A DNA stretch of 64,000 nucleotides, from positions 1,760,001 through 1,824,000 of the forward strand of contig OX638340.1 of NCBI GenBank assembly GCA_951812955.1, in the 5' to 3' direction. The notes under the pieces are model-generated. The model saw nothing but the letters and a program-made list of their open reading frames with translations. It searched no databases and was not told the DNA's origin. Shown here piece after piece: positions 10,072-26,756 of this stretch. Each line of letters starts with the position of its first letter. The first letter of the stretch is position 1. This DNA comes from an uncultured Gemmatimonadota bacterium (GTDB taxonomy: Bacteria > JAAXHH01). Position numbers and translations under genes: made by a program.

Positions 10072-10830
10072 ATGGCTGACACCCCTTCCCCGGACATCGT
10101 CCCCAAGACCTACACCTGTTACCGGGCCTGCGGCCCCATCGCGATCGACGGAAAGTTGAGCGATCCGTCCTGGATCCGCGCGCCGCGCACCGACCTCTTC
10201 GTCGACATAGAGGGGGACCTCAAGCCCATTCCGCGGTTCGGCACGCGCGCCATGATGCTGTGGGACGACGAGTACTTCTACGTAGCGGCGGACATGGAGG
10301 AGCCGGACGTGTGGGGCACGCTGACCAAGCGCGATTCGGTCATCTGCAACGACAACGACTTCGAGGTCTTCATCGATCCCGACTCCGACACCAACCACTA
10401 CATGGAATTCGAGATCAACCCCCTGAATGCCGCCTGGGACCTCTACCTGCCGAAGCCCTACAGCAAGGGCGGCCAGGCGGATCACGACTGGGATTTCGTG
10501 GGTGTGCAACACGCCGTCCACATCGACGGCACCGTCAACTGTTCCCACGACGTGGACCGCGGCTGGTCCACCGAGATTGCCTTCCCCTGGACCAGCATGG
10601 CCGAATACGCCGGTGTCGACTGCCCACCGAAAACCGGGGATTCCTGGCGAGTCAACTTCTCGCGTGTCGAATGGGAATACGAACGGTATAAGGACGGCTA
10701 TCTGCGCAAAGAGGGCGTTCCGTGCGACAACTGGGTCTGGTCACCGCAAGGCGTGATCAACATGCACGTCCCCGAGATGTGGGGGCACGTCGTTTTCTCG
10801 GATACGGTGGTGGGTACGAAGGAGATGTAG
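10072..10830 (+). CDS. CBM9-like (carbohydrate-binding family 9-like / DOMON-like) domain protein
   Basis: WDDEYFYVAADMEEPDVW...DSVICNDNDFEVFIDPDSD...YMEFEINPLN matches the CBM9-like pattern (LW.D..LYVA...D... then DsVEvFiD). Confidence 0.55.
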   Translation: MADTPSPDIVPKTYTCYRACGPIAIDGKLSDPSWIRAPRTDLFVDIEGDLKPIPRFGTRAMMLWDDEYFYVAADMEEPDVWGTLTKRDSVICNDNDFEVFIDPDSDTNHYMEFEINPLNAAWDLYLPKPYSKGGQADHDWDFVGVQHAVHIDGTVNCSHDVDRGWSTEIAFPWTSMAEYAGVDCPPKTGDSWRVNFSRVEWEYERYKDGYLRKEGVPCDNWVWSPQGVINMHVPEMWGHVVFSDTVVGTKEM

Positions 10831-10836
10831 CCAGGC

Positions 10837-11283
10837 GTGAATACTTATAGCCACACCCAGTTCGGAACAGTCAACGTCGTCATCGTTATCGCCATCCTGC
10901 CGTTGGTCTTACTGCCTGCATGGCTGGCCGGAGCAGCCCCCATAGCCGGGCTGATCCTGATCCTCCTCCTGGGGATCCTAGTGCTGTTCTACAACCTGAC
11001 CGTCACAATCGATGACGCGCATCTTCGCATCCGCTTCGGGATCGGCATAATCCGCAAGAGGTTCCCCCTCGACCAGATCGACACTTGCCGACCGGTCAGA
11101 AATTCCTGGCTTTATGGGTGGGGAATCCGGCTAACGCATCGAGGCTGGCTTTACAACGTATCGGGACTGGAGGCAGTGGAACTGAAGATGAAGAGCGGTA
11201 AGACCTGTCGCATCGGGACGGACGAGCCCGCGGCACTGGCTGCCGCCATCAAGGAGAGGTTGGACAACCTGAGACCTGCGTAG
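10837..11283 (+). CDS. Hypothetical membrane protein (two N-terminal TM helices, C-terminal PH-like segment)
   Basis: GTG start; hydrophobic N-terminus VNVVIVIAILPLVLLPAWLAGAAPIAGLILILLLGILVLF. Last backbone gene before the low-GC island. Confidence 0.5.
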   Translation: MNTYSHTQFGTVNVVIVIAILPLVLLPAWLAGAAPIAGLILILLLGILVLFYNLTVTIDDAHLRIRFGIGIIRKRFPLDQIDTCRPVRNSWLYGWGIRLTHRGWLYNVSGLEAVELKMKSGKTCRIGTDEPAALAAAIKERLDNLRPA

Positions 11284-11322
11284 AAATAAGATCCTGACCA
11301 GGCGGATCCAGGGATCATCGGA

Positions 11323-11357
11323 CTTATATCTTCGGTCTTATATCTTCGGTCTTAAAT
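11323..11357. repeat. Tandem 14-bp repeat (cttatatcttcggt x2 plus partial copy) at the left edge of the low-GC island
   Basis: Read directly: cttatatcttcggt at 11323-11336 and 11337-11350, then cttaaat. Confidence 0.8.
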
Positions 11358-11395
11358 TTCTCGTCGATTTAAGAGTAAACCCGATATGCCCAGAC

Positions 11396-11566
11396 CTACT
11401 GCTTTTCTCGCAACATAGCCTTGATTTCAGACACCTCGGATTCGATGTTTTTCAAGCTGCCTTTGATTTCAGTTACAAGGGCGTTTGTTTCGGCCCACAG
11501 ATCTGGAATCTTGCCGAATACATTTGCTTGCTGACCAACCTTTTTTGATAACCAGTTCATCGGCAT
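11396..11566 (-). CDS. Small hypothetical protein (56 aa, predicted helical/coiled-coil)
   Basis: Not in the ORF track (<60 aa). ATG at 11566 preceded by an AAAGAGG RBS. Translation MPMNWLSKKVGQQANVFGKIPDLWAETNALVTEIKGSLKNIESEVSEIKAMLREKQ; stop TAG at 11396-11398. Confidence 0.35.
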   Translation of the reverse strand: MPMNWLSKKVGQQANVFGKIPDLWAETNALVTEIKGSLKNIESEVSEIKAMLREKQ

Positions 11567-11948
11567 CCTCTTTCATTTTCGAAATGTCTTAACGGGTGGC
11601 CGTGTTATTGAGTCCTTCCCATCTATCCGTCCTAACACTGCTATTTCGATACTATTGCGTTTTACAGGCCGAAGTAAAGAAGATCCTGAACTCATCTGAT
11701 GAATCAGCGGATTTCTGCCTTTGTCATTTCTGATTCTCCAGGTGTTCTTCCGTTTTCTGGTTCACTCGTTTGATCACGTAACCTTGAAATCGGTGGCGCA
11801 AATTCCGTGAATGTATAACCTCACTAGAATACAGTGGACTAGAAGCGAGATTTCTCGTGTTTTTATCAGAATTGTGAGTAAATGTTAACATTGAAAAACT
11901 AGGTTCCTTTATCTTTCTCCTCCCTTTATAACACAACTGAACGTTCGA

Positions 11949-11986
11949 GAATTACCCATACACAGGTGAATTACCCATACACAGGT
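11949..11986. repeat. Perfect 19-bp tandem direct repeat (gaattacccatacacaggt x2) ending 30 bp upstream of the hsdR ATG; candidate operator or promoter element
   Basis: Read directly: 11949-11967 and 11968-11986 are identical. Confidence 0.8.
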
Positions 11987-12015
11987 ATAGATCAAAAGCA
12001 AAACGGATATACAGC

Positions 12016-14781
12016 ATGCAGAGCGCCAACCAAACACCTGAACAGAAGGCACGAGACATCATCGACGTCAGGCTGGAACGCGCTGGCTGGAACTTACAGT
12101 CGAAGAACGAGATCGACTTCAGCGCTGGTCGCGGTATTGCCGTTCGCGAGTATCCGACAGACATAGGCCCCGCGGATTACGTCCTTTTTGTCGACAAGAA
12201 ACCAACCGGCGTGGTTGAGGCCAAACCTGCCACGCAGGGTCAAAATATCACGACTGTCGAGGAGCAGTCATCTGGTTATGCCAATGCCAACCTCAAGTGG
12301 GTAGACAACAAAGAGCCACTCCCCTTTGTCTACGAATCTACCGGCGAGCTCACGAGGTTCACCGACAGTCGCGACCCGAATCCTCGCTCACGAGAAGTGT
12401 TCAGCTTCCATCGGCCAGAGACCATGGCGAACTGGCTCAGCCAGTCCAATCCACTGCGTGAGCGGCTCCAGGGGCTGCCGGAATTGGATGTCAAAGGACT
12501 CAGGGCGTGCCAGATAAACGCCATCGAGAACCTTGAAACATCCTTCAAAAAGGACCACCCTCGCGCCCTCATTCAGATGGCTACCGGCTCCGGTAAAACC
12601 TACACAGCCATTACCTCGATCTACCGACTGCTCAAGCACGCTGACGCCAGGCGAGTCCTCTTCCTTGTAGACACCAGAAACCTCGGCGAACAGGCCGAAC
12701 AGGAATTCATGGCCTACGTGCCCGGTGACGACAACCGCAAGTTCACCGAGCTGTACAACGTCCAGCGCCTCAAATCGTCCTACGTCGCCAACGACAGCCA
12801 GGTCTGCATCAGCACGATCCAGCGTATGTATTCGATTCTGAGGGACGAGGAACTGGATGACGCTACAGAGCAAATCAACCCGGCGGAAATGGTGCAGCCC
12901 AAAAAACCAGTGCCGGTTGCCTATAACGAGAAGATCCCACCGGAGTTCTTCGACTTCATCATCATCGACGAATGCCACCGCTCGATTTACAACCTGTGGC
13001 GGCAAGTCCTCGAGTATTTTGATGCCTATCTCATCGGCCTGACTGCTACGCCGGACAACCGAACCTATGGATTCTTCCGAAAGAACGTGGTCAGTGAATA
13101 CCCACATGAGGAAGCCGTCGCCGACGGCGTAAACGTCGGCAACGAAGTCTATGTCATCGACACGGAAAGGACAAAGCACGGCGGAAGACTCAAGGCGGAG
13201 CAGCAAGTTGAAAAACGCGAGCGCCTGACGCGGCTCAAACGCTGGGAGATTCAGGACGAGGACGTCACCTACACCGCCAAGGAACTCGACCGGTCCGTCG
13301 TCAACCCCGACCAGATCCGCACCGTCATCCGCACTTTCCGTGACAAACTGCCTGAGATATTCCCGGGCCGCGCCGAAGTCCCGAAGACGCTCGTTTTTGC
13401 AAAGACCGACAGCCATGCCGACGACGTCATCCAGACCGTGCGCGAAGAATTCGGCGAAAGTAACGAGTTCTGCAAGAAGGTCACTTACAAAACCGAAGAA
13501 GACCCGAAATCCGTCCTCGCCCAGTTCCGCAACGACTACTATCCGCGCATCGCGGTAACCGTGGATATGATCGCCACGGGTACCGACGTAAAGCCGCTCG
13601 AATGCCTGCTCTTCATGCGTGACGTGAGGAGCCGTAACTATTTCGAGCAGATGAAAGGTCGTGGCACCCGCACCCTCGACCATGACGATCTCAGACAGGT
13701 CTCGCCCTCCGCCGCCAGCGGAAAGACCCACTACGTGATCGTGGACACCGTAGGGGTCACGAAATCGCTCAAGACCGCCAGCCAGCCGCTCGTCACCAAG
13801 CCCTCCGTGCCACTCAGGGACCTCCTCATGGGGGTGATGATGGGCGCATGCGATGAAGACACGGTGAGTTCGCTCGCCGGGCGCCTCGCGCGGCTTGATC
13901 AACAACTCGATTCCGCCGATAAAGAGCGGATCAAGAAGCAAGCCGGCGGTATCGAACTCACTCAAATCGTTGGCGATCTACTTGCCGCCATCGACCCTGA
14001 TCGCATTCAGGAAAAGGCGCATGGAATCGAACCCGTGCCCGACGGTGTTGAACCACCACCTGCCGTTTGCGAGAAGGCCCGGGAGCAGCTGGTCCATGAC
14101 GCAGCCGACGTGTTCAACGGCGAACTGGTCGAATTGATCGACTCGATACGTCGCGACAAGGATCAGACGATCGACCATGACAGCTTGGACAAGGTAACCC
14201 GCGCCGAATGGGAAGGCGACACGCGCGAGAACGCCGAAGCCATAGCGCAGGACTTCCGGCAGTATCTCGAAGCGAATCGCGATGAGATCGAAGCGCTGAC
14301 CATCTTCTTCGCCCAACCGCACCGTCGCCGGGAGTTGACGTACGCCATGATTCGTGAAGTCTTCGATAGACTGAAGAGCGACCAGCCTCGACTGGTCCCA
14401 TTACGGGTCTGGCAGGCCTATGTTCTGCTCGACGAATACAAAGGCGGTCAGCCAATCAGCGAACTGACTGCGCTTGTAGCGTTGATTCGCCGTGCCTGTG
14501 GCATCGATGGAAAGCTTTCGCCCTATTCGGAAACCGTGCGCCGGAATTTCCGGGACTGGATCATGAAGCGACACAGCGGTAGCGGAGAGAAGTTCAACGA
14601 CGAGCAGATGGACTGGCTGCGAATGATCCGCGAACACATCATCACTTCGTTTCATCTTGAACGCGATGATCTGGATTTAGCACCATTCGATAGCAGGGGT
14701 GGAATGGGGCAGATGTACAAGCTCTTCGGTGACCAGATGGATGAATTGATTGGCGAGTTGAATGAGATACTGGCGGCGTAA
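12016..14781 (+). CDS. hsdR: Type I restriction enzyme R subunit (HsdR)
   Basis: 921 aa. N-terminal PD-(D/E)xK nuclease (ADYVLF...VVEAKP), helicase motif I MATGSGKTYTA, motif II FIIIDECHRS, typical HsdR length. Confidence 0.9.
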   Translation: MQSANQTPEQKARDIIDVRLERAGWNLQSKNEIDFSAGRGIAVREYPTDIGPADYVLFVDKKPTGVVEAKPATQGQNITTVEEQSSGYANANLKWVDNKEPLPFVYESTGELTRFTDSRDPNPRSREVFSFHRPETMANWLSQSNPLRERLQGLPELDVKGLRACQINAIENLETSFKKDHPRALIQMATGSGKTYTAITSIYRLLKHADARRVLFLVDTRNLGEQAEQEFMAYVPGDDNRKFTELYNVQRLKSSYVANDSQVCISTIQRMYSILRDEELDDATEQINPAEMVQPKKPVPVAYNEKIPPEFFDFIIIDECHRSIYNLWRQVLEYFDAYLIGLTATPDNRTYGFFRKNVVSEYPHEEAVADGVNVGNEVYVIDTERTKHGGRLKAEQQVEKRERLTRLKRWEIQDEDVTYTAKELDRSVVNPDQIRTVIRTFRDKLPEIFPGRAEVPKTLVFAKTDSHADDVIQTVREEFGESNEFCKKVTYKTEEDPKSVLAQFRNDYYPRIAVTVDMIATGTDVKPLECLLFMRDVRSRNYFEQMKGRGTRTLDHDDLRQVSPSAASGKTHYVIVDTVGVTKSLKTASQPLVTKPSVPLRDLLMGVMMGACDEDTVSSLAGRLARLDQQLDSADKERIKKQAGGIELTQIVGDLLAAIDPDRIQEKAHGIEPVPDGVEPPPAVCEKAREQLVHDAADVFNGELVELIDSIRRDKDQTIDHDSLDKVTRAEWEGDTRENAEAIAQDFRQYLEANRDEIEALTIFFAQPHRRRELTYAMIREVFDRLKSDQPRLVPLRVWQAYVLLDEYKGGQPISELTALVALIRRACGIDGKLSPYSETVRRNFRDWIMKRHSGSGEKFNDEQMDWLRMIREHIITSFHLERDDLDLAPFDSRGGMGQMYKLFGDQMDELIGELNEILAA

Positions 14782-14928
14782 GTCGGTCTTTTGCCAGGCT
14801 TCTTACTGCTGCTCCCTTCTGCCGCACTACTTTACATATTGACCATTATCTTTACATCATGTAGTTTTTCTTGGTATATTATAGCAAGTAAAGAAATTCA
14901 ATAATACTCCAACAATTGATCTGCATCA

Positions 14929-15177
14929 TTGGAGCGTATCGTGCCCAAAGTCAGCGCCAAGCGACAGATAACGCTTCCGGCTGATCAGTGCCGTCTGGTC
15001 GGTATCGAGCCAGGCGACGAGTGCCAGAGTTTCGTGGCCGATGGCCGCATTACCATAGTCCGCCAGGAGCCCGGCAGCGCCTGGGGATGTCTGTCGCATC
15101 TCGAAGGGGATCAGACGGTTTCAGACGAGGAGTCGCGCCAGAACGCCATGGAGAGAAAGCGGGACCAAACGCCTTGA
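14929..15177 (+). CDS. vapB: AbrB/SpoVT-family antitoxin (VapB-like)
   Basis: SAKRQITLPADQCRLVGIEPGDE swapped-hairpin motif. Start more likely GTG at 14941 (GGAGCG RBS) than TTG at 14929. Stop overlaps the PIN gene start (TTGA). Confidence 0.65.
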   Translation: MERIVPKVSAKRQITLPADQCRLVGIEPGDECQSFVADGRITIVRQEPGSAWGCLSHLEGDQTVSDEESRQNAMERKRDQTP

Positions 15178-15575
15178 TCGCAATCGACACCAATGTCCTG
15201 CTGCGCTATCTCCTGAAAGATGATGAGGCGCAGGCTGAACGGGCGCGTAGCGTTATCGAGTGCGGCGAGCGCGTGCTCATTACGGACGTGGTACTGGCGG
15301 AAACGGTATGGACGTTAGCCGGCCGCAGATATCGCGCGAGCCGGACCGATCTGATCGATCTGGTCAACAAACTGCTGCAAGATGCCAACCTGTGCTTTGA
15401 GGATGACGAAGTGGTCTGGAGCGCCCTGCAGGCCTTTCGCAGGACGGAGGCGGACTTCGCCGACGCCCTGATCGTGTGCAAGGCCAGAAAGACGGTCCCC
15501 GCCGGCGACGAGTTGAGCGCGGTTTACACCTTCGATGATACCGCCTTGCAGTTGCCCGGTACCGCAGAGCCGTAG
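15174..15575 (+). CDS. vapC: PIN-domain toxin (VapC-like)
   Basis: TTG start overlapping the vapB stop. LIAIDTNVLLRYLL (first acidic residue of the PIN fold), later TDVVLAE, ~133 aa. Confidence 0.7.
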   Translation: MIAIDTNVLLRYLLKDDEAQAERARSVIECGERVLITDVVLAETVWTLAGRRYRASRTDLIDLVNKLLQDANLCFEDDEVVWSALQAFRRTEADFADALIVCKARKTVPAGDELSAVYTFDDTALQLPGTAEP

Positions 15576-15689
15576 CGCGTGTCTGGTGTATCGGCGCACG
15601 GGAAGTATGCCGGTATCTTTGTGAGTAGATGGATGAAGTTACTGATGAGTTGAATGAGGCGTTGGTGGCGTCTTTGACGGACTGATTTT

Positions 15690-17231
15690 GTGAATACTAT
15701 GATTCCAAATGGATGGGCCCATACATCGCTTGAAGCGGTGTGTCAGGTTCTCGATTCTAAGCGTATACCGTTAAATAACAGCGAACGTTCTCGACGTATC
15801 GCTGGTAAGTCCGCTGATGATCTTTACCCCTACTACGGCGCTACAGGTCAAGTCGGTGTAATTGACGATTTTATCTTTGATGGAGAACATGTTTTATTGG
15901 GCGAAGACGGTGCCCCATTTAATGATCCTTTCAAGGTAAAATCTTATCTGGTAGATGGGAAATTCTGGGTCAACAATCATGCTCATATTCTCAAATCAGC
16001 TATCCCAAACAGATATCTATGCCACTATCTCAATCAGATTGACTATTCTGGCTATGTAACAGGAACGACAAGACTGAAGCTTACTCAGACCGCATTAAAG
16101 CGAATTCCTGTTCTTGTTGCTCCCAAAGCCGAACAACACCGCATCGTCGCCAAAATCGAGGAACTGTTTTCCAAACTGGACAAGGGCATTGAGAGCCTGA
16201 AGGCGGCGAGGGCAAAGCTCGATGTCTATCGTCAGGCCGTGCTCAAGCACGCCTTCGAAGGCAAGCTCACGGCCCAGTGGCGCGAAGAGAACAAGGACAA
16301 GCTTGAGACACCCGAGCAATTACTCTCACGCATCAAAAAAGAGCGGGAAGCACGTTATAATAGGCAACTGCAGGAGTGGAAGGACGCCGTCAAGAAATGG
16401 GTGGAAGGCGGTAAGTCAGGAAAGAAGCCGACGAAACCTCCGAAGTTGGAGGAAATACCACACTTATCGATAACCGAAACAGTAACTCTTCCACCCCTCC
16501 CCGCTAATTGGGCTTATTTACACTTGGGGCTTGTGATCGACGAGCCCAAGTACGGTAGTTCGAAGAAATGTAACTACGACTACAAAGGCACAGGGGTTTT
16601 GAGAATACCTAATATCGTCCGAGGTGCAGTCGACACGTCCGATCTCAAAGGGACTCACTTCGAAGAGGACGAGAAACGCGCCTACGGTTTGAGGAGTGGT
16701 GAAATTCTCGTGATCCGATCAAACGGAAGTATCTCCGTAGTAGGTAGGTGCGCTCTAATCTCAAAAGCAGAAGAGCAGTATCTGTACGCTGGTTACCTTA
16801 TCCGCCTACGTAGTAACTTGACCGCGTTGCATCCCGAGTACCTTGTAGCTCTACTGTCAAGCCATCTGTTACGAACTCAAATCGAGCACAAAGCAAAATC
16901 GACTAGCGGTGTCAACAACATAAATTCGGGTGAAATCCAATCGCTCATCGTCCCTTTGTGCAGTCTCAGTGAGCAGGAAATAGTAGTCGAACGACTGTCT
17001 GCAAGTCTATCCTCGATTGACGCTATCAAGGGTGAGATCGACAATCAGCTACTACAAACCGAAGCCCTGCACCAATCCATCCTCAAGAAAGCATTCTCGG
17101 GCCAGCTCGTCCCGCAAGACCCGAATGACGAGCCCGCGTCAATTCTGCTTGAGCGCATCAATGGCGTAAAAGCTGCACTATCTCAAAACAACACACAGAG
17201 AAGACGTAGACACGAGAAGGCAACGGCATGA
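15690..17231 (+). CDS. hsdS: Type I restriction-modification specificity subunit (HsdS), two target-recognition domains
   Basis: Two variable TRDs separated by conserved helical spacers (PKAEQHRIVAKIEELFSKLD and SLSEQEIVVERLSASLSSID) and C-terminal AFSGQL. Lower GC within the TRDs. Confidence 0.9.
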   Translation: MNTMIPNGWAHTSLEAVCQVLDSKRIPLNNSERSRRIAGKSADDLYPYYGATGQVGVIDDFIFDGEHVLLGEDGAPFNDPFKVKSYLVDGKFWVNNHAHILKSAIPNRYLCHYLNQIDYSGYVTGTTRLKLTQTALKRIPVLVAPKAEQHRIVAKIEELFSKLDKGIESLKAARAKLDVYRQAVLKHAFEGKLTAQWREENKDKLETPEQLLSRIKKEREARYNRQLQEWKDAVKKWVEGGKSGKKPTKPPKLEEIPHLSITETVTLPPLPANWAYLHLGLVIDEPKYGSSKKCNYDYKGTGVLRIPNIVRGAVDTSDLKGTHFEEDEKRAYGLRSGEILVIRSNGSISVVGRCALISKAEEQYLYAGYLIRLRSNLTALHPEYLVALLSSHLLRTQIEHKAKSTSGVNNINSGEIQSLIVPLCSLSEQEIVVERLSASLSSIDAIKGEIDNQLLQTEALHQSILKKAFSGQLVPQDPNDEPASILLERINGVKAALSQNNTQRRRRHEKATA

Positions 17232-17983
17232 CCGGCAAACTTGCCATCAACATCGATAACCTGCTGCGCCAGCGTGCCATCGAAGAGGCGCTGGTGAACG
17301 CCATCGACCATCGCTCATACGAGGAGCGGGAGCCGGTTGAAGTTCGGATCACCCGCGATGAGTTGCTGGTCCTGAGTTATCCCGGGGCGGACCGCTCCAT
17401 CCGTATGGACGACTTCAAGCAGGGGCAGGCCGTGAGCAGGCGCTACCGGAACCGGCGAATTGGTGAGTTTCTGAAGGAACTCGACCTCGCCGAGGCCTGC
17501 TCAACCGGGGTGCCGAAGATTTTCACGGCCATGCAGCAGAACGGCTCACCGGAACCCATCTTCGAAAGCGACGAGAACCGGACCTGGTTTCGCGTGCGCC
17601 TGCCGGTGCATGAACGGGCATTACTTGCCACGACCGACCAGGATACCATACATGATACCCAACATGATAACTCATTGATAAATAAAAGGAAAAGTCACGG
17701 TACCCAACACGGTACCCAACATGATACCCAACATGATATCGACCAAGTCGAGCAACTGGTGGCTGTGCTCACTGGAGAGATGAGCCGAGCTAGTATCCAG
17801 GCAGGATTGGAACTCAAAGATCGGCCCCATTTCATCGAATCGTATCTAAAGCCTGCCCTGGAGGCCAAGTTGATTGAAATGACCCTCCCGGACAAACCCA
17901 CCAGTCGCCACCAGCGCTATCGCCTAACTGCCGCTGGAAAGGCTTTAGCTGAGCAAATCAAACGAGAGAACACCGCCAAATGA
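17228..17983 (+). CDS. HATPase_c_4 (RecG-like C-terminal / Schlafen-like ATPase core) plus C-terminal winged-HTH protein, lacking the usual N-terminal AlbA_2 domain
   Basis: VNAIDHRSYEEREPVEVRITRDELLVLSYPGA...SRRYRNRRIGEFLKELDLAEACSTGVPKIFTAMQQNGSPEPIFESDENRTWFRVRLP matches the HATPase_c_4 pattern. 4-bp overlap with hsdS stop and hsdM start. Internal TQHD low-complexity repeats (17641-17738). Confidence 0.6.
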   Translation: MTGKLAINIDNLLRQRAIEEALVNAIDHRSYEEREPVEVRITRDELLVLSYPGADRSIRMDDFKQGQAVSRRYRNRRIGEFLKELDLAEACSTGVPKIFTAMQQNGSPEPIFESDENRTWFRVRLPVHERALLATTDQDTIHDTQHDNSLINKRKSHGTQHGTQHDTQHDIDQVEQLVAVLTGEMSRASIQAGLELKDRPHFIESYLKPALEAKLIEMTLPDKPTSRHQRYRLTAAGKALAEQIKRENTAK

Positions 17984-19467
17984 ACACCGCTCCCATCGTA
18001 TCCAAAGTCTGGAGTTTCTGCAACACCCTGCGCGACGACGGGGTGAGCTATGGCGATTACCTGGAACAACTCACCTATCTGATATTTCTGAAGATGGCAG
18101 ACGAGTACGCCAAACCGCCGTACAGTCGGGACGTCGGCATCCCGGTCGAATTCAACTGGCAGAGCCTGAGATCGAAGAACGGCGCGGAACTCGAAGGCCA
18201 CTACGTCGCGCTGCTTCGAGCCTTCGGCACCAGGACGGGCATGCTGGGCCAAGTCTTTACCAGGGCCCAGAACAAGATCCAGGATCCGGCAAAGCTGTTC
18301 CGCCTCATCGCCATGGTGGACGACACCGAATGGGTCACCATGGGCGCCGACATAAAAGGGGATATCTACGAAGGGCTCCTGGAGAAGAACGCCGAAGATA
18401 CCAAGACCGGCGCGGGCCAGTATTTCACGCCGCGTGCTCTCATCCGGGCCATGGTCGAGTGCGTACGGCCCGAACCGGGAATGCTCATCGCTGACCCGGC
18501 CTGCGGTACGGGCGGTTTCTTTCTCGCTGCATACGACTTCATCACCAACCAGGACAATTTCAGGTTAGACAAGGATCAAAAAGCGTTCCTGAAACACGAG
18601 GCGTTTCACGGCAATGAAATCGTCCCCAATACACGCCGTCTTTGCCTGATGAACATGTTCCTGCACAATATCGGTGAAATCGACGGCGGCGTCCCGATAT
18701 CGCCCAACGACGCGCTGGTGGCCGATGCCGGCAAGCGTTACGACTATGTGCTGGCGAATCCGCCCTTCGGCAAGAAAAGTTCCATGAGTTTCACGAACGA
18801 GGAAGGCGAACAGGAAACCGACGACCTGACCTACAACCGGCAGGATTTCTGGGCGACGACCTCGAACAAACAGCTGAATTTCGTGCAGCACATCCGCACG
18901 ATGCTCAAGACCACCGGCCGCGCTGCTGTCGTCGTTCCCGACAATGTACTGTTCGAAGGCGGGGCCGGTGAGACGATCCGCAAAAAGCTGCTGGACAACA
19001 CGGACTTGCACACCATCCTGCGCCTGCCGACGGGCGTGTTCTACGCGCAGGGCGTCAAGGCCAATGTGATCTTCTTCGACAATCACGAAGCCAGCCCGAA
19101 TCCCTGGACGAAGCAGGTCTGGTACTACGACTACCGCACCAATATCCACCATACGCTGAAGAAGAAACCACTGCGCTTCGAGGACCTGTCGGATTTCATC
19201 AACTGCTACAACCCGCAGAATCGCCACCAGCGCAAGGCGACCTGGGACGAAAACGATGCACCGGAAGGCCGTTGGAGGAGTTACAGCTACGAGGAGATAA
19301 TCGCGCGCGACAAGACCAGTCTCGACATCTTCTGGCTCAAGGACAAAAGCCTGACGGACCTGGACAACCTGCCCGAACCTGATGACCTTGCCGAAGAGAT
19401 CATAGAGAACCTGGAGGCAGGTCTCAACAGCTTTCGCGAGGTGCTGGCTGGATTGGGGAGGCAGTAG
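17980..19467 (+). CDS. hsdM: Type I restriction-modification DNA methyltransferase subunit (HsdM), N6-adenine
   Basis: Motif I DPACGTGGFFL, motif IV NPPFG, N-terminal HsdM_N-like region, 495 aa. Confidence 0.92.
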   Translation: MNTAPIVSKVWSFCNTLRDDGVSYGDYLEQLTYLIFLKMADEYAKPPYSRDVGIPVEFNWQSLRSKNGAELEGHYVALLRAFGTRTGMLGQVFTRAQNKIQDPAKLFRLIAMVDDTEWVTMGADIKGDIYEGLLEKNAEDTKTGAGQYFTPRALIRAMVECVRPEPGMLIADPACGTGGFFLAAYDFITNQDNFRLDKDQKAFLKHEAFHGNEIVPNTRRLCLMNMFLHNIGEIDGGVPISPNDALVADAGKRYDYVLANPPFGKKSSMSFTNEEGEQETDDLTYNRQDFWATTSNKQLNFVQHIRTMLKTTGRAAVVVPDNVLFEGGAGETIRKKLLDNTDLHTILRLPTGVFYAQGVKANVIFFDNHEASPNPWTKQVWYYDYRTNIHHTLKKKPLRFEDLSDFINCYNPQNRHQRKATWDENDAPEGRWRSYSYEEIIARDKTSLDIFWLKDKSLTDLDNLPEPDDLAEEIIENLEAGLNSFREVLAGLGRQ

Positions 19468-19608
19468 GCGGTAGATGAACTTGTTAGGGACTCACTTACC
19501 GCGTATTACGATTATGTTCCGTTTATTTTCACTGTATTGAAGTTACTCCGAAAAACCAGTTAGGTTCGATTCATTTTCCATCGCAAGTATGTAAATCACT
19601 GAATTACT

Positions 19609-21777
19609 ATGAATAGTAACTGCAAAACTGAAGTTCGATCCGAATCTGAAATAGTCACCGATTTAGAGAGTTTGAGCCAGGAAAAAGGGTACATCTATTC
19701 CTTCTGTCGAATGGTTGATGAATACCTGTGGTTGAAACCCAGCGAACCCGAAATCCCTGATTGGCACAGTCAATTAAACATACGTGAGTTAACTTTCTTA
19801 TTAGGGTTAATGGTCAAGTATCAATTGACCATATCTGATTCTCCGACTGAACGGGAGTCTGACCTACATATCGATAAGACCAATGAGTTGTTTCATGAAC
19901 TTCATCAAACTCATGCTTTTCCGAAAACAAAGGAAGTAAACGCCGCCCAAGTGAACTTAGAAGATTGGGAATCGGGGTTGAAAAACACCTATACCGACTG
20001 GATCAAAAGCGGTAAAGGTATCGTCGAGCCGGTTTTTTATGGTGAAGAAGGTGCATACGATTTCCAGTTCCTCAAAATGGCAGCATGGAGGTACAAACTT
20101 GATAATCAGTGGATAAAGTCGAACATAGGTATGGATGTTGATACTTTAACTGATATCGCAGGTAAGATTAAACGACTTACCGAATATCGCGCCAATGATG
20201 TAACCAGGACGTCAGACTTCAGAGATTCATGCTTTCGGTTGATATCAGTCTTCTTAATTAAGCCAGATGGCGTTCCTGGCGCTAATAGAGAAGAAATCGA
20301 AGTCTTTCTTGAAACCTTTTCTGTTGAACCACGGGACGGAGTTAATCAGAACCTTAACACGATTGGTGAATACAACACGGCAGACTCGCACCCCATTATT
20401 AAGATTAACAATGAACTTTATTTCATTCCCATCTACTACAACCTAGCAAAATCCATCTACGAGAACCCCTTCTACTGGATTCTCAAAGACAGTGATTACA
20501 GACAAACAGGACTTCAGAACAGGGGTGATGTTACAGAAGAAATAGTATTCGAACTGTTACGACGAGTTTTTGGTATAGACAACGTTTTTCGCAGGGTAAA
20601 AATAAAACGTGGAAACAGAGACATAACGGATATCGACGTTCTTGCAGTATGTGGGAGTAAAGCTGTCATTGTACAGGTGAAATCTAAGAGACTTACGGTG
20701 CTGTCGAAAGGTGGTGATGGCAAGAGCATAGAGAAGGATTTCAAACAAGCTGTTCAGGATGCTTACACCCAAGCGTTATTGTCGAGAAACTTCCTGCTAG
20801 AGACAGATGAAACACTGACGGTTAATGAAGAAAGGCTAATGCAGGTCAAAGGGAACATCGATGATGCCTATATAATCTGCGCTACTGGTGATCATTATCC
20901 TGCAATTACTATTCAGACAAAGTCATACCTCAAAAAGAAGGCAACCGACCCTTACCCAGTTGTACTAAGCGTTTTTGACCTTGATACTATATCGTTTTAC
21001 CTCAGAGAACCGTATGATTTCATATACTACGTTCGTCAACGCACTATACATGCGGGTCACTTCGAGGCTGATTCAGAAATGGCCTTTCTTGGTTTTCATC
21101 TAAACAAAAAACTATTTCCCACAGATGGATATGATATCACGATTATCCCACAATATTATGCATATCTCATCGATATTAGTTTTCCAGTCCTAAAGGGTGA
21201 GCATCCTATTTCGGATGCAGCATACAAGGTATTCCACAAGTGGAAAAACAACGATTTTGATGAGCTAGTTAATGAAATCAAAGTTAGAAATACCGGTCAT
21301 CCACAACTGACAGATTTGATTTTCTTTTTGTTCGATTTAGCAGGATCAGTAGCCGACAAGATTTTCGAAATCTTCGGCGAAATCAAACGAACCACTCGTG
21401 GTGACCTAAAGCCTCACGATGCTACAATTCCAATAGACCAAGCCGGGAAAGGTATAACACTGTTCTGCTACCCTTCGACGTTAGAACTTAGTGAGACAAT
21501 AATCCAAGATCAGTTTCGAGGCTTTGCAGCTGCTCGGAAATACAAAAGCAAAGCTAATGAATGGTTAGCGCTCGCATCATCCGCACAAAGTTCAAATCTG
21601 TTTGACTGTCTCTGGTATAGTAAAGAAGTATGGTGTTATGATGAGAGTTTCGAGCGTCTATCAAAACACATGATTAAACAAGGACATCCCATTCGTACTG
21701 ACGGACGGAAAATAGGTAGAAATTCACCCTGCCCTTGTGGAAGTGGATTGAAGTTTAAAAAGTGCCACGGAAAATAA
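19609..21777 (+). CDS. Large hypothetical protein with a NERD-like PD-(D/E)xK nuclease core and C-terminal SEC-C zinc-binding motif; candidate defence nuclease
   Basis: 722 aa, very AT-rich. Central EEIVFELLRRVFG...RDITDIDVLAVCGSKAVIVQVKSKR fits E...D-x-D...Q-x-K as in the NERD consensus (EIDHIVI...GIFVIETKN). The extreme C-terminus NSPCPCGSGLKFKKCHGK is a SEC-C motif. Confidence 0.5.
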   Translation: MNSNCKTEVRSESEIVTDLESLSQEKGYIYSFCRMVDEYLWLKPSEPEIPDWHSQLNIRELTFLLGLMVKYQLTISDSPTERESDLHIDKTNELFHELHQTHAFPKTKEVNAAQVNLEDWESGLKNTYTDWIKSGKGIVEPVFYGEEGAYDFQFLKMAAWRYKLDNQWIKSNIGMDVDTLTDIAGKIKRLTEYRANDVTRTSDFRDSCFRLISVFLIKPDGVPGANREEIEVFLETFSVEPRDGVNQNLNTIGEYNTADSHPIIKINNELYFIPIYYNLAKSIYENPFYWILKDSDYRQTGLQNRGDVTEEIVFELLRRVFGIDNVFRRVKIKRGNRDITDIDVLAVCGSKAVIVQVKSKRLTVLSKGGDGKSIEKDFKQAVQDAYTQALLSRNFLLETDETLTVNEERLMQVKGNIDDAYIICATGDHYPAITIQTKSYLKKKATDPYPVVLSVFDLDTISFYLREPYDFIYYVRQRTIHAGHFEADSEMAFLGFHLNKKLFPTDGYDITIIPQYYAYLIDISFPVLKGEHPISDAAYKVFHKWKNNDFDELVNEIKVRNTGHPQLTDLIFFLFDLAGSVADKIFEIFGEIKRTTRGDLKPHDATIPIDQAGKGITLFCYPSTLELSETIIQDQFRGFAAARKYKSKANEWLALASSAQSSNLFDCLWYSKEVWCYDESFERLSKHMIKQGHPIRTDGRKIGRNSPCPCGSGLKFKKCHGK

Positions 21778-21847
21778 CATCCGATCCTGAAACTTGATCT
21801 TGCAAGGGTCTGTCACGGAAAGGTTCGGTCATAGAGTATTAAGCTTA

Positions 21848-22918
21848 TTATTCTTCTTGTTCTTCGGGATATGGGAGGACTGGGGCTGTTGTCCAGCCTT
21901 CACGTTCAGGTGAATTATGTCCTGTACATATAGTTCTGCCCTCTGTCGAAACTACTTTCGCCCCACGGTGTATACAAGCCCGAATAACTGCTTTTCTAGG
22001 GTGATCCTCGTCTTCTTTAGACGCACTTATAATTGCGTTAAAATGTTCGTTTCCCTCTTCTTGCTTCTCTGGCAGTCGCTTACCCAGCAATCTGTCAAGT
22101 ATCTCCGTTGATAAATTGCGTCGTGATCCGTGGTGCGGGACCTGAAAATGGTCAATTCCTGGAAGTGTCAGTCCTACTGATGGCGCATAATCCAGTGCCT
22201 CGGTAAGTGCACCTCGTCCTGCATCCGCAGTCAGTAATACCTTTTTCTCGCAAAGATTAGCATACTGGATCACACTCATCTCATTTTCAAAGCTAGTTTC
22301 TTCCGGTGAAAACGTTTCTTCACCCCATGCAGATCTTATAAACGAAACAACACTTTTTACGAAAGCACGTCCATGTCCTAACAATGATTGAGCTGTCCCT
22401 TCCGGAGTTCTATCGGATTCAACAATGAGATTCAGATACCTTTCTTTTGATGGTGCAAGGACCGTGAACTCTCCGATTTGTTCTCCTTGAAATGGTGCCA
22501 ATATCGGTATCTCTCGTGCCTTAGCAATCTCTTCAAGTTCGGCAATGTTTGGGTATATTTCCTTTAGCCTACGAACCAGATTCTCCACATTTGTAAAACG
22601 AGCAAACCGGTCAATTAACTCATCTGCATATAGCCATGGTCGTAACATCCACAACTCTGAGACGCTAAATGCTTCGAGGACTTTTCGTAGCCCGCCTGTA
22701 TGGTCGCCATCGGAATGACTGGCTATAACGGCATCAATCGTGCTAGGGTCATCATAATACTTTTTGATATGCTCAATTACAATGTCTCCAGAATCCTGAA
22801 ATCCTCCATCAGTTACGTGAACTCTCTTGACACCAGCTATGGAATACCGAAGTGGTATTGCATCCCCGCTCTTGCTTGACTTTACGTCAAGGAAATCAAT
22901 TTCAAAAAAGTATGACAT
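21848..22918 (-). CDS. MBL-fold metallo-hydrolase, ComEC-like lactamase domain
   Basis: ASHSDGDHTGG (HxHxDH metal-binding motif). N-terminus FFEIDFLDVKSSKSGDAI resembles the start of the ComEC/Rec2 lactamase domain (FLDVGQGDA). Later HFQVPHHGS. AT-rich. Confidence 0.6.
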   Translation of the reverse strand: MSYFFEIDFLDVKSSKSGDAIPLRYSIAGVKRVHVTDGGFQDSGDIVIEHIKKYYDDPSTIDAVIASHSDGDHTGGLRKVLEAFSVSELWMLRPWLYADELIDRFARFTNVENLVRRLKEIYPNIAELEEIAKAREIPILAPFQGEQIGEFTVLAPSKERYLNLIVESDRTPEGTAQSLLGHGRAFVKSVVSFIRSAWGEETFSPEETSFENEMSVIQYANLCEKKVLLTADAGRGALTEALDYAPSVGLTLPGIDHFQVPHHGSRRNLSTEILDRLLGKRLPEKQEEGNEHFNAIISASKEDEDHPRKAVIRACIHRGAKVVSTEGRTICTGHNSPEREGWTTAPVLPYPEEQEE

Positions 22919-22921
22919 ATG

Positions 22922-23422
22922 CTACTCTTGCTCCTTGATTTTAGCGTTTCTTACGCGCTTAGCTACATATTGAGTCTGTTTTCTATAAGAGAATAAAAAT
23001 ATCAACAATAACCCCGCCAAAATTATTAAAACTATTTCATCATCACTTATAGACCACAAATGCTTCAACTCGTCAAAGATTTTGAGGAAAACTAACACAA
23101 TCACTAGCGAACTCAGCGTACGATACATGTTGTTCTGTTCTGACAAGACCTCGATCTTTGAATCCACTTCTACTGCTTCCAGATAATCCTTGTAGTCTGC
23201 GAACCGAACAAATTTGATCTTTTTGAGTAGGGGTTCCAATATCAACGATCCAATCCTGCTAATGACCAACCCTGCCATGTAGTATATAAACACTCCTATG
23301 ATCCAGTCCTTATGGACTAATGAAAATGAGGTGATTTGTTCTCCCAGACCAGCAAATAGAACTCCAGGAAGTAGATAGTTAAAAATGTTATATGACGACA
23401 GCTTTTCAATTACAGTTTTCAT
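22922..23422 (-). CDS. Small hydrophobic membrane protein (about 4 TM segments), translationally coupled to the MBL gene
   Basis: Hydrophobic stretches (IFNYLLPGVLFAGL; WIIGVFIYYMAGLVISRIGSLIL; LSSLVIVLVFLKIF; IVLIILAGLLLIFLF). Stop is 3 bp from the MBL gene start. Confidence 0.5.
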   Translation of the reverse strand: MKTVIEKLSSYNIFNYLLPGVLFAGLGEQITSFSLVHKDWIIGVFIYYMAGLVISRIGSLILEPLLKKIKFVRFADYKDYLEAVEVDSKIEVLSEQNNMYRTLSSLVIVLVFLKIFDELKHLWSISDDEIVLIILAGLLLIFLFSYRKQTQYVAKRVRNAKIKEQE

Positions 23423-24268
23423 CAGGTTTGCCTTTTTGTTTTATTGCCTAAAACATCCTCCATAACAACAAAATCTAATGTACACAACTAATCGTCGTAC
23501 TAGCTAGTAAGTGAAACTTCCACTCCTATCCTGCTTTAAAATGGTATGTCAACACCAGAAGTGATTTTTGTACAGCACCTAATTGGGTAGTGATATGTTT
23601 TTAAATCTCGTTGAATGTAACCCTAATGTATCGACAAATCCCGATTATTTACAAGTAATTAACCCGTAGATTGCCTCTTTAAACAGATTGACATGGGAGG
23701 TTCTACATGGTAACCTGAACACGTCAACGATTCCAATTCGGCTCGAGCCGGGTATTCTGCTGAATATAGAACCCACAAAGGTAGATTTGCAAAACCTCCC
23801 GCAATCTTTAGGTGGAGCGTTGACACTGCCCGTCACCAACAAACAGATTGGTGCTAAAGCTGGGGTTCGCCATGAGGGTTTTCGGTACCATAGTACTGTG
23901 GGTGTTAGCACTGTAGGAACTTAGATGTTCATAGTTGCCATGTTTTATTCCAATTCGGTTTCCTAGGAGCTAGAGCAGGACAATCTCGATTTAGTAGCAA
24001 AGGAACATCAGGTCTCTGTTTTGGAGAATACCCTTGAGAAGTTGAGGGCTCAAACCAACTTGGTGGATGAACTGACGGCCGTTCAGATAGAAAACATCAA
24101 ACTGATGGATAAGTTGATCAAAGCGAACAACGACTAGATTAATATGGTAAACAAGCATTTCATAAAGCATAGGTACCGTCCCATTGACCGGGGAGGGTTA
24201 GATTGCAACTAAGTCTTAGGATTGGTCGCCAGAGACTGAACGGTTCGGTGCCCTGATTGCGTGGTTGA

Positions 24269-24400
24269 ATGGTCAAGTTCGAGGAAATTGACAAGCAGTT
24301 CGACCGGGTGGATGTACCACTGGACGTGCTGGTGCTGAACATGCGTGAACTCAGAACCGATGTGACAGATGGTCTTAGAAAACACGCAATAGAAAGATAG
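24269..24400 (+). CDS. Small hypothetical ORF (43 aa)
   Basis: MVKFEEIDKQFDRVDVPLDVLVLNMRELRTDVTDGLRKHAIER; weak RBS; first of a same-strand series of short ORFs. Confidence 0.2.
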   Translation: MVKFEEIDKQFDRVDVPLDVLVLNMRELRTDVTDGLRKHAIER

Positions 24401-24413
24401 GAGGGAGTGAAGA

Positions 24414-24566
24414 ATGGAAAATGACGGACAACTGGAACAGATTATCGAACTGTTGATGGACTTAAATTCCCACATGGCAGACCTTAAAGAACTCATCAAG
24501 GTTTCAAACAATCAACTGGATATCATCAAAAGTTACTTGGACAGCATAGATCGTAATTCAGCATAG
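24414..24566 (+). CDS. Small hypothetical protein (50 aa), helical
   Basis: AGGAGGGAG RBS 6 nt upstream. MENDGQLEQIIELLMDLNSHMADLKELIKVSNNQLDIIKSYLDSIDRNSA. Confidence 0.3.
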   Translation: MENDGQLEQIIELLMDLNSHMADLKELIKVSNNQLDIIKSYLDSIDRNSA

Positions 24567-24574
24567 GAGTCAAT

Positions 24575-24751
24575 ATGTCGTTGGGAGGATATACGTATAT
24601 AGCGGACACTGAGACATTGAAATCAAACTACGAGTTATTGCAGAAAAGCCTTATTCAACTTATCAACGAGACGAATAGTGCTGAAATAATGCTCAAGGCG
24701 ATTTCGTTAATGATCGAACTAGATTCCACCTATACCAAGGGAAATAGGTGA
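24575..24751 (+). CDS. Small hypothetical protein (58 aa)
   Basis: AGGAG RBS. MSLGGYTYIADTETLKSNYELLQKSLIQLINETNSAEIMLKAISLMIELDSTYTKGNR. Starts 9 nt after the previous stop. Confidence 0.3.
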   Translation: MSLGGYTYIADTETLKSNYELLQKSLIQLINETNSAEIMLKAISLMIELDSTYTKGNR

Positions 24752-24761
24752 AGGGGTCTTT

Positions 24762-24878
24762 ATGCCCACAGGACCGAAGGGCGAGAAGCGGCCTCGTGAC
24801 TTCGTCGGATCGGTCATTACAGTCGGCAAGATCACCACTGGTTTAATAGAAGAGACCAGAGTAAGCCCTGCCAAGTAA
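24762..24878 (+). CDS. Small hypothetical ORF (38 aa)
   Basis: GAAGGGG RBS. MPTGPKGEKRPRDFVGSVITVGKITTGLIEETRVSPAK. Confidence 0.2.
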   Translation: MPTGPKGEKRPRDFVGSVITVGKITTGLIEETRVSPAK

Positions 24879-24995
24879 AATGCCGGAACTAGGCCAGGTC
24901 GATACGACTGACCGCGTCATGCCGGACCGAGATCGGCTGGTATGCCGGCGAATGTGCGGTGGGGAGGTCAAAGTACCAGATAGCGGAGGATTGAC

Positions 24996-25151
24996 ATGAA
25001 GCAACTGGAGCAGAAGGATATTAAGATCGCATTGGATAGGCTCAATGCCGAAATAGAACAAAAGCAACGCACGGTGGACCATTATCAAGGTGAATTGGAT
25101 AGCCTTAAAAACGTTGCGGAGCTTTTGGAGTCTCTTCTGGGATCACAGTAA
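24996..25151 (+). CDS. Small hypothetical protein (51 aa), coiled-coil-like
   Basis: GGAGGA RBS. MKQLEQKDIKIALDRLNAEIEQKQRTVDHYQGELDSLKNVAELLESLLGSQ. Confidence 0.3.
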   Translation: MKQLEQKDIKIALDRLNAEIEQKQRTVDHYQGELDSLKNVAELLESLLGSQ

Positions 25152-25453
25152 ACTGATACTGGTGGAAGTCAGTATGGATTTTGGAAGAATTTAAGATCGT
25201 ACTCGAAATCGTAAGGACATTGCTTGGCCCATGATTGAAAGGAGGTCATGATGGACAGGTACAAAGGAATGTATCCGATTCCAATAAATAGAGAAATCAT
25301 TGAGACCAAGAGGAAGCATTGGGAAGTCCTTCTATAAGCAGACCGAGTTCTCGAACAGGCTTCCAAGCAAATTGGTCTCGACACGTCCGAAGAAACATAT
25401 TAAAAATAAGAGAAATGCTTAACACAACGGGTTGGTTTCGTTATACTTAGTAT

Positions 25454-26191
25454 ATGAAAAGGATCATCCGAGACAAGCTACTGTTAATGCTGAACATGCT
25501 GTTAGAAGTGTCTTCGATAAGTTCTATCGCTAGGATCGTCGGGGTCAACTACATCACCGTTCAGAAACTCATGCTGGATTCCGTTCAGGTGTGCAAAATC
25601 TTCCACCATAAAACCGTAATGGATGAAGACGCCAAGCAAATACAATGCGACAAATATGGAACTTCGTTTAGAACAAGGTCCAATGCGGTCTGGACGTAGA
25701 CGGCCATCCGGCAAGACACCAAGTTTATTCTGGCTTTCAAGGACGGAGACAGAACCAACGAAACCGCCAAGACGCTATTCGACGATCTGATGACGCGGCT
25801 GCGAAACAAGATGTGGATCCGGACGGACAGGCTTCCTTCCTACTCAGGGGCGATATGGGACTCGTTTTTCGTGTCTGCCACACATCAATTAGCGGGCGCC
25901 GCCGCAGTCTAATACTCCAACATAGAGCGCCAGAATCTCAACATGCACATGGGAGTGTGAAGGTACACCCGAGCGACCGATGCGTTCTCTAAGAAGATCG
26001 ACTATCTATACAACCTGCTCTCATTGTACTTCGTCTTCTACAACTTTATCCGAAAGCATCTGCTACTTGGCATGACTCTCGCTCAGGGAATCGGCCTTTC
26101 TGGTGAAACCCGCGACCTGGGTAAGATACTTGATGTGGTGGACGAAGCAGCCCCACTTCCGAACAGGCCGAAGACGTACAGAAAGTGCTAG
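25454..26191 (+). mobile_element. Decayed IS1-family transposase (InsA-like HTH ORF plus frameshifted InsB-like C-terminal fragments), IS remnant
   Basis: 25454..25699 encodes an InsA-like HTH (SISSIARIVGVNYITVQKLM, cf. IS1 InsA ...ATARIMGVGLNTILRHL). Downstream frames give ...KTLFDDLMTRLRNKMWIRTDRLPSYSGAI... and ...ERQNLNMHMGV*RYTRATDAFSKKIDYLYNLLSLYFVFYNFIRKHLLLGMTLAQG..., the conserved IS1-family transposase C-terminus. Reading frame is broken by stops and shifts. Confidence 0.6.
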
Positions 26192-26235
26192 GAACATCAT
26201 TCATTCTTTTGTCACAAGGAGTATTCACTGTGGAT

Positions 26236-26550: not shown

Positions 26551-26756
26551 AGGCTAAATTACCGATAACATACAATCCTTAGTACTACCTTAATTGAATG
26601 ATAGCGGTACCTAGAGTTGCTTGTAATCGGGCTCTCACAATCTCGTTTAAAAATTGGTCAACAATCAATGTGCTCTTAACACAGTGCAATTATACACCGC
26701 ACGTTCATCGAGAAACCACATTACTTGATACAACCTCGACTACACGATAAGGCTTT

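Follow-up and report, generated by a model that had tools for sequence, protein, structure and literature searches.

The 64,000-nucleotide stretch analysed here (the window) comes from an uncultured Gemmatimonadota bacterium (GTDB lineage Bacteria; JAAXHH01; GenBank assembly GCA_951812955.1, contig OX638340.1, positions 1,760,001 to 1,824,000 of the forward strand) and carries, between positions 12016 and 19467, a type I restriction-modification (RM) locus that has a toxin-antitoxin (TA) pair, vapBC, inside it. The locus is made up of six head-to-tail genes on the + strand: hsdR (R), vapB, vapC, hsdS (S), a gene here called X, and hsdM (M). Matches to Pfam and PADLOC models together with the coordinates bear out the gene identities, strand and order given in an initial annotation made from the letters of the sequence, and the 4-bp overlaps that it reported are likewise present, as TTGA at vapB/vapC and ATGA at both S/X and X/M.

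Judged by these matches, the locus is an intact and complete type I RM operon. The restriction subunit gene hsdR (12016-14781, + strand) encodes 921 amino acids with the make-up of a type I subunit, namely a nuclease N-terminus (HSDR_N), a superfamily 2 (SF2) motor and a C-terminal assembly domain. It matches the Pfam families ResIII (E = 2e-42), EcoEI_R_C (8e-37), HSDR_N and Helicase_C and the PADLOC model REase_I, a DECH box is present, and the alignment of residues 1-921 to relatives at 58-95% identity indicates a full-length protein. The specificity subunit gene hsdS (15690-17231, + strand; 513 amino acids) encodes two target-recognition domains (TRDs), with Pfam Methylase_S found in two stretches and PADLOC Specificity_I over the full length (1e-86); in comparison with relatives the central and C-terminal parts are conserved and alignable while the TRDs differ. 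The methyltransferase subunit gene hsdM (17980-19467, + strand; 495 amino acids) matches Pfam N6_Mtase (9e-72), HsdM_N and PADLOC MTase_I (7e-196) and contains the motif LANPPFG, and its nearest solved structures, 2okc (447 bits) and EcoKI M (336 bits), align over the full length. HsdM and the two-TRD HsdS thus have the features of a type I RM system.

The same three subunits make up the type IA systems, represented by EcoKI and by the 'StySJI M protein' structure 2okc, to which the system is related by sequence. The best NCBIfam models, which we take to be those of E. coli K-12 proteins, are PRK11448 for HsdR (score 404 against a cut-off of 729) and PRK09737 for HsdS (181 against 662), so that neither score reaches the strict type IA (EcoKI) equivalog level; of the 1123 positions in the PRK11448 profile, HsdR covers 231-1118 and is hence the shorter protein. 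The system is best described on these scores as related to EcoKI yet not equivalent to it, and it presumably forms, by analogy with EcoKI, an R2M2S1 enzyme in which HsdR is controlled post-translationally.

Between hsdR and hsdS lie two small genes that have the arrangement of a VapBC pair, with a small antitoxin gene directly upstream of, and overlapping, the toxin gene, and the same pair is called in all relatives. The antitoxin gene vapB (14941-15177, + strand) encodes 78 amino acids; its start is most likely the GTG at 14941 rather than the TTG at 14929, because GGAG lies 6 nt upstream of the former and called homologues are also 78 amino acids long. The toxin gene vapC (15174-15575, + strand) encodes a PIN-domain protein of 133 amino acids and starts with the TTG within the TTGA overlap. 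VapC has more than 1600 homologues, some of them named VapC family toxin, and the closest named ones come from metagenome-assembled genomes (MAGs) of Gemmatimonadetes. Its residues D5, E43 and D94 are invariant, even in an unrelated PIN protein, and D120 is conserved within the lineage; among PDB sequences the sole match is PcrIIC1, and it is marginal. We infer the RNase activity of VapC and the physiological role of the pair from these features.

The initial annotation had described the pair as an AbrB-type antitoxin with a PIN toxin. The toxin half of that description is well founded (Pfam PIN at E = 2e-11; score 45 bits, cut-off 23.6), and VapB is likely of the AbrB/SpoVT type, an assignment that is not firm. 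TIGR01439 matches VapB with E = 6e-5 and 22.6 bits, below its cut-off of 28.3, and no Pfam family matches. In hhalign comparisons with AbrB and MazE, the N-terminal domain is aligned, over its whole length with AbrB (E = 0.003, probability 10%), but weakly in both cases. A single-sequence AlphaFold (AF2) model of VapB has a strand-helix-strand-strand topology, presumably compatible with the AbrB fold, at a mean predicted local distance difference test (pLDDT) score of 60 and about 75 over residues 11-40; searches with this model in Foldseek gave no significant match, and searches of PDB sequences gave chance matches only.

The cassette was also said to be an AT-rich insert of about 900 bp. The size is right (14782-15689, 908 bp), but the G+C content of the insert is 0.556 against a window mean of 0.555, with 0.62 in vapB and 0.60 in vapC, and only the 159-bp spacer in front of vapB (14782-14940) is AT-rich, at 0.377. 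A promoter scan and a search for inverted repeats found in this spacer a promoter-like site with a putative VapB operator (14830-14894, + strand). The promoter-like site consists of a -35 element TTTACA (14851-14856), 18 nt and a -10 element TATATT (14875-14880) with an upstream TG, and scores 10/12 plus TG. TCTTTAC/GTAAAGA inverted repeats (I2, I3) overlap the site, with CTTTACA at 14830 and 14850 and the inverted GTAAAGA at 14888-14894; CTTTACA occurs in only four copies in the 64 kb, two of them upstream of vapB. The CTTTAC/GTAAAG motif also lies upstream of vapB in L003, L081, L083, L084, L095, L096 and L098, and these repeats are probably the VapB operator. In L084 there is no hsd gene within 8 kb, and the conservation of the motif there argues that the cassette carries its own control region. 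No terminator-like site was found in the hsdR/vapB spacer 14782-14940 or in the vapC/hsdS interval 15576-15689, and we infer read-through from the vapBC promoter into hsdS.

Immediately in front of hsdS, a duplicated hsdR 3' end follows the cassette. This remnant, r2 (15616-15685, + strand, about 70 bp), reads MDEVTDELNEALVASLTD followed by a stop, compared with DQMDELIGELNEILAA and a stop at the genuine HsdR C-terminus; only 4 nt separate the in-frame stop of r2 from the start of hsdS. It differs from the hsdR end of the window itself and matches other hsdR lineages; in blastn it finds the hsdR 3' ends of many loci, with up to 100% identity over 28 nt. We regard r2 as non-coding because the copies in L081 and L083 carry indels, and r2 keeps the native sequence upstream of hsdS. 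The same scar, with identical breakpoints, is found in L003, L081 and L082/L083 and is retained in L096 and L098, which lack the RM genes.

Repeats of the hsdR 3' end bracket the genes inserted at the R/S junction not only where these are vapBC (in the window, L003 and L081/L083). In L073 (4616-5102) a second hsdR 3' end, 90 nt long and about 90% identical (z = 28), comes after a DUF559 gene, in L040 (7188-7851) an independent pair of a 76-amino-acid protein and a PIN protein is followed by an hsdR remnant abutting hsdS, and in L069 (7098-7602) an 83-amino-acid open reading frame (ORF) is followed by an hsdR remnant ending in ATGA. Four other R/S insertions have no detectable hsdR repeat, and at the S/M junction cargo flanked by copies of the hsdS 3' end was found in only 2 of 50 loci, both weakly positive. 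A tentative reading of this small sample, which we hold to be rather unlikely, is that the R/S junction acts as a recombination-based cargo slot whose cassettes are bracketed by hsdR 3'-end repeats. Such repeats would result if a circle with a single copy had integrated by one crossover of the Campbell type. This reading fits because r2 of the window matches other hsdR lineages and because vapBC is patchily distributed among close hsdR relatives; if it is true, the repeats would serve as portable homology arms by which cargo could be inserted, precisely excised and exchanged among family members regardless of the variable hsdS. Alternatively, the last hsdR codons may carry the hsdS translation-start region and have to be kept.

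The gene inserted at the S/M junction, X (17228-17983, + strand; 251 amino acids), matches only HATPase_c_4 and Fic-like_C in Pfam, and its homologue in L081 is a protein of 547 amino acids with SLFN_AlbA_2, HATPase_c_4 and winged-helix domains. Compared with this homologue, X lacks 864 bp (288 codons) in frame, between 10-bp direct repeats GCCATCGAAG that now form the junction at 17276-17285; the deletion removed the N-terminal AlbA_2 domain, and with it the full architecture, and left both 4-bp overlaps in place. This is the pattern one would expect from slippage or microhomology-mediated deletion. X had been proposed to be translationally coupled to S and M, and the ATGA overlaps at both its ends agree with that; X is, though, a decayed copy of the cargo gene most commonly found at the S/M junction of the family.

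To place the order of the genes, relatives of HsdM were sought in one genome per species, which gave more than 590 confirmed matches, and the best 80 loci, from many phyla and with HsdM identities of 72-94%, were surveyed by tblastn with the window proteins. In 68 of the 80 loci hsdM is preceded on its own strand by hsdS, the other 12 being short contigs or partial systems, and in 60 loci hsdS is preceded by hsdR; none of the 80 has a system with M ahead of S, and wherever the flanks are long enough the order is R, S, M on one strand. The hsdR and hsdS genes overlap by exactly 4 bp in 40 of these 60 loci and lie within a few bases in 8 more. On a Vibrio campbellii plasmid the RefSeq annotation also gives S, then M. 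The term 'hsdRSM' of the literature is used loosely and without the direction of transcription, and it is unusable as a precedent for the order. R, S, M on one strand is the native order of this family, so that the order described initially as unusual is its norm. The type IA system EcoKI differs in having R and then M-S transcribed from a second promoter (PMC12707154), compared with R-S-M and overlapping genes in the family of the window.

The initial annotation had also asked how methylase expression could precede restriction when S comes before M. HsdR works only within an R2M2S1 complex. Control of HsdR is post-translational, by ClpXP in E. coli types IA and IB (PMC12707154) and by Lon-like proteases in P. 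aeruginosa (bioRxiv 10.1101/2024.10.21.619520). For both reasons, and because R normally comes first in the family, gene order poses no such problem in type I systems.

The S/M junction is often occupied: S and M overlap by 4 bp in only 12 loci, and 0.4-7.8 kb separates them in 50 of the 68. All cargo ORFs of at least 90 amino acids in these gaps are co-directional. Among 72 such ORFs, Pfam matches are to SLFN_AlbA_2/HATPase_c_4/Fic-like_C (12-17; 16-17 for SLFN_AlbA_2/HATPase_c_4, the dominant type), GmrSD (6), Fic (6), RhuM (3), HerA with SIR2 (3) and PIN (2), and also to DarT/Macro, Abi_2, HEPN and reverse transcriptase. Across L002-L080 the junction is a hotspot of cargo that is often translationally coupled, with the largest insert (7.8 kb) in L021. 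Partial duplications also occur. In L003, a degenerate second operon end (14552-16727) lies downstream of the complete system and is made up of a C-terminal piece of hsdS, a complete homologue of X (76%) and 120 codons from the start of hsdM (90%), and L011, L057 and L068 have comparable partial duplications of hsdM or X, which suggests frequent recombination at the X/M junction. An orphan hsdM of the family, 79.5% identical, is found in L089 (Methylomonas koyamae plasmid pFW12EY, 8724-10476), with an 88-amino-acid gene annotated as VapC family toxin 10 nt upstream and no hsdS or hsdR annotated nearby.

The combination of such an operon with vapBC is not confined to the window. A scan of metagenomes with VapC gave L081 and L082/L083, the last two with identical vapBC and probably one locus, and the order R-vapB-vapC-S-X-M is found in both, and R-vapB-vapC-S-M in L003, a Latescibacterota MAG. 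L003, L081 and L082/L083 share the same structure, in which the hsdR stop is followed by the spacer with CTTTAC/GTAAAG, vapBC, a spacer of about 40 bp, the remnant and hsdS. Across these loci the hsdS genes are only 41-43% identical, and the specificities therefore differ. Megablast with the 7.4-kb locus returned only short hsdR fragments from plasmids and no match from E. coli genomes.

The history of the cassette can be read from closer relatives. Six close homologues of VapC lie on contigs that share the core-gene neighbourhood of the window, with asparaginase, PhyH, CBM9 and a 150-amino-acid gene on one side and exonuclease III-like, topoisomerase IV A-like and metallo-β-lactamase (MBL)-fold genes on the other. 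At this same site, L091 has R-vapBC-S with hsdS split by an insertion sequence (IS) element and no hsdM nearby, and L092/L094, L095, L096/L097 and L098 have vapBC but none of the three hsd genes. The two clades formed by the core genes recur in the vapBC tree, and identities between the clades are also alike (vapBC 85-90%, CBM9 85-89%, xth 86-87%); vapBC has therefore been inherited vertically at this site.

What flanks vapBC in the genomes without RM genes indicates what was there before. L098 matches window positions 14770-15701, a stretch that begins 12 nt before the end of hsdR, runs through the spacer, vapBC and the remnant and takes in 12 nt of the hsdS start, and shorter stretches are kept in L096 (14827-15709), L095 (14822-15635) and L092 (14918-15575). 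Because these genomes retain hsdR and hsdS stubs, we conclude that the ancestor had the composite and that the RM genes were later deleted around vapBC. The composite of L003, at 73% identity, is more divergent than the split between the two clades and points the same way. The opposite history, in which vapBC came first and the RM system was assembled around it, was rejected, given the stubs in the RM-less genomes and the composite and scar shared with the distant L003. About 100 bp after the hsdS 5' stub, L096 (8629-9138) and L098 (8629-9258) have a second TA pair, in L098 a ribbon-helix-helix (RHH) antitoxin with a PIN toxin, which occupies the former place of hsdS-X-hsdM beside vapBC.

These deletions bear directly on the proposal that vapBC stabilises the RM island by post-segregational killing; a stabilising effect had also been considered in the initial annotation. 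Addiction is a textbook property of type II TA pairs, TA pairs are frequent in defence islands (PMC5499597), and vapBC is the sole component never lost in nine related genomes. Yet both flanks were deleted, to varying extents, in L092, L095, L096 and L098, so that four sister lineages lost hsdR and hsdS-X-hsdM and kept vapBC, and the fifth, L091, has its hsdS split by an IS element and is missing hsdM nearby. Moreover, the locus is chromosomal, so that segregational loss does not apply, and selection would oppose only those deletions that remove vapBC itself. The comparative evidence speaks against stabilisation, and we consider it improbable as the role of the pair here.

The same genomes bear on the possibility that vapBC is functionally integrated as a second line of defence and stands guard over the RM system. 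The precedent for it is PrrC, an anticodon nuclease whose gene, that of a toxic RNase, lies in a type I RM cluster; it is kept latent by the RM enzyme EcoprrI, on which it depends, and lacks a protein antitoxin. In such a scheme, the toxin would be freed when a phage disables restriction and would abort the infection. The position of vapBC within the operon, between hsdR and hsdS, agrees with it, as do the defence genes that make up most of the passengers at the S/M junction of the family, the unrelated pair of a small ORF and a PIN gene at the R/S junction of L040, and the transcriptional coupling of PIN toxins to type I subunits noted previously (PMC5499597). Like prrC, vapC is a putative toxic RNase gene in a type I cluster, but it comes with VapB, a dedicated protein antitoxin that makes masking by Hsd proteins unnecessary. 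It also has its own promoter-like site and putative operator, which are conserved outside RM contexts, and it persists without RM genes: four lineages without hsdR, hsdS and hsdM keep vapBC intact, with ratios of nonsynonymous to synonymous substitution rates (dN/dS) of 0.06-0.28. By comparative genomics, then, a PrrC-like dependence on the RM complex is not found, and a guard function has little chance of being the explanation.

A third possibility is that the cassette is kept for the expression that it rewires, its putatively autoregulated promoter driving hsdS-X-hsdM independently of hsdR and thereby providing methyltransferase without a matching amount of nuclease. The insertion breaks the native 4-bp R/S overlap, the promoter-like site at 14851-14880 is strong, no terminator-like site lies between vapC and hsdS, and r2 retains the native sequence upstream of hsdS. 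However, vapBC is retained where no hsdS or hsdM is left to drive, most family members do without any insert, and the effect could be real but incidental; as the reason for which the cassette is kept, rewiring seems to us somewhat unlikely.

That vapBC is kept for some function is indicated by its sequence evolution. Every locus examined has undamaged vapB and vapC ORFs, of exactly 78 and 133 codons, and dN/dS is 0.06-0.29 in all vapBC comparisons, the RM-less clade included (vapB 0.06-0.29, vapC 0.10-0.28), at dS up to 1.8. By this measure, vapBC is under purifying selection, that is, a pair of functional genes. The initial annotation had allowed for a mere insertion scar, and decay is indeed close at hand, in the adjoining hsdR remnant and in the neighbouring X. 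A functionless vapBC is strongly disfavoured by the intact ORFs and the low dN/dS at such dS, and also by the conserved catalytic residues and promoter motif, and we give it hardly any credence.

We therefore favour, as the likely explanation, an operon of the R-S-M family that carries an old, autonomous and functional vapBC passenger. In this model, the native layout of the family is hsdR, hsdS and hsdM with 4-bp overlaps, and passengers are tolerated at two junctions, R/S and S/M. At the S/M junction, X is the remnant of the commonest passenger, having lost its N-terminal domain by a slippage-type in-frame deletion. At the R/S junction, the passenger would be a self-sufficient type II TA cassette with its own promoter, a probable VapB operator, an AbrB-like VapB and a PIN RNase, VapC. 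This cassette would have entered long ago, leaving the duplicated hsdR 3' end before hsdS, and would then have been inherited vertically at a chromosomal hotspot in the Gemmatimonadota clade, working independently of the RM system and persisting as an addictive element. As a side effect, it would probably add an internal autoregulated promoter upstream of hsdS-X-hsdM; the insertion broke the native R/S overlap and may have altered the ratio of methyltransferase to nuclease. Across the sister genomes, vapBC evidently neither kept its RM neighbours from deletion nor depends on the RM genes. A stand-alone role in abortive infection, as a second line of defence, is possible, and such a role would not be tied to the RM system because vapBC is under purifying selection without it.

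Several points weigh against this model or limit its reach. The scenario of an ancestral composite rests on about ten loci, and the outgroup argument from L003 (73% identity) holds if rates of change were broadly similar. Purifying selection indicates functional genes and not their role, and abortive infection would give the same signal. The fold of VapB is not firmly assigned, given a TIGR01439 score below the cut-off, weak hhalign matches and no significant Foldseek match. Finally, hsdS in the window neither overlaps hsdR nor has a clear ribosome-binding site, and its expression there is uncertain.

PIN toxins linked to type I RM systems are already in the literature, and in this respect the locus is a further documented example and largely ordinary. 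Matelska et al. (2017; PMC5499597) mention 'several cases' in which a PIN toxin and type I RM subunits are transcriptionally coupled, likewise with the toxin gene on the same strand in an hsd cluster. The window has the antitoxin too, and it differs from those cases in that one arrangement recurs over at least five loci from two phyla with a diagnostic scar and a traceable later loss of the RM genes. Type I RM operons also harbour other defence genes, namely TgvAB of the V. cholerae island VPI-2, RloF of C. jejuni and GmrSD homologues, and TgvAB works without the restriction activity of HsdR (PMC11411939). These too are independent passengers between hsd genes, and GmrSD-type genes are also among the passengers of the family described here. 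Unlike TgvAB, the R/S passenger of the window is a TA pair and not a restriction enzyme, and its anti-phage activity is putative.

The surroundings of the locus vary among these genomes. It lies in a variable hotspot at about 11284-26750, between a 148-amino-acid gene (10837-11283) and the exonuclease III-like gene (26757-27539), which sister genomes fill with DUF2089 genes, with the second RHH and PIN pair, or with an XhoI-type II RM system and a large helicase. No tRNA gene was found at the hotspot, and thus no tRNA-linked island boundary; a scan of neighbouring ORFs revealed no integrase domain, and no Rfam family was found in the window. Downstream of hsdM, a gene at 19609-21777 (+ strand) encodes a 722-amino-acid protein with a weak match to the NERD (nuclease-related) domain (E = 4e-5) and a C-terminal SEC-C zinc motif, at a G+C content of 0.41 (window, 0.555). 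The RM-less L098 has an 84%-identical copy at the same hotspot (10810-12978), PADLOC gave no system match beyond the SEC-C motif, and the protein may be the product of an uncharacterised defence gene. Upstream of hsdR, a 56-amino-acid ORF (11396-11566, - strand) without a Pfam family lies in an AT-rich region, where the DNA is 77% identical to that of L091 over 209 bp; L091, L092 and L098 all have a called gene of 60-61 amino acids in this place and orientation, whether the RM genes are present or not. At the far edge of the island, 3.3 kb (23400-26750) contain no ORF above 121 amino acids, and short ORFs that by eye resemble transposase fragments make it probable that this is decayed mobile-element debris.

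For the family as a whole, our results imply that the R-S-M order and the genes wedged into it are normal in a very widespread group of type I systems and should not be flagged as anomalies by annotation pipelines and scans. The repeated duplications of the hsdR end hint at a simple route by which cargo may move between RM operons. The added value of the locus itself is modest, and consists in the possibility of tracing how a TA pair survived the loss of its RM host. Within one clade and at one chromosomal site, an intact composite of RM system and TA pair, a decaying one and four cases of a TA pair with small hsd stubs amount to a natural experiment. From the comparison there is direct evidence that a TA pair can persist after the defence system around it is gone, and that it does not protect its neighbours from deletion, a result of relevance to the widespread view of TA modules as stabilisers of defence islands.

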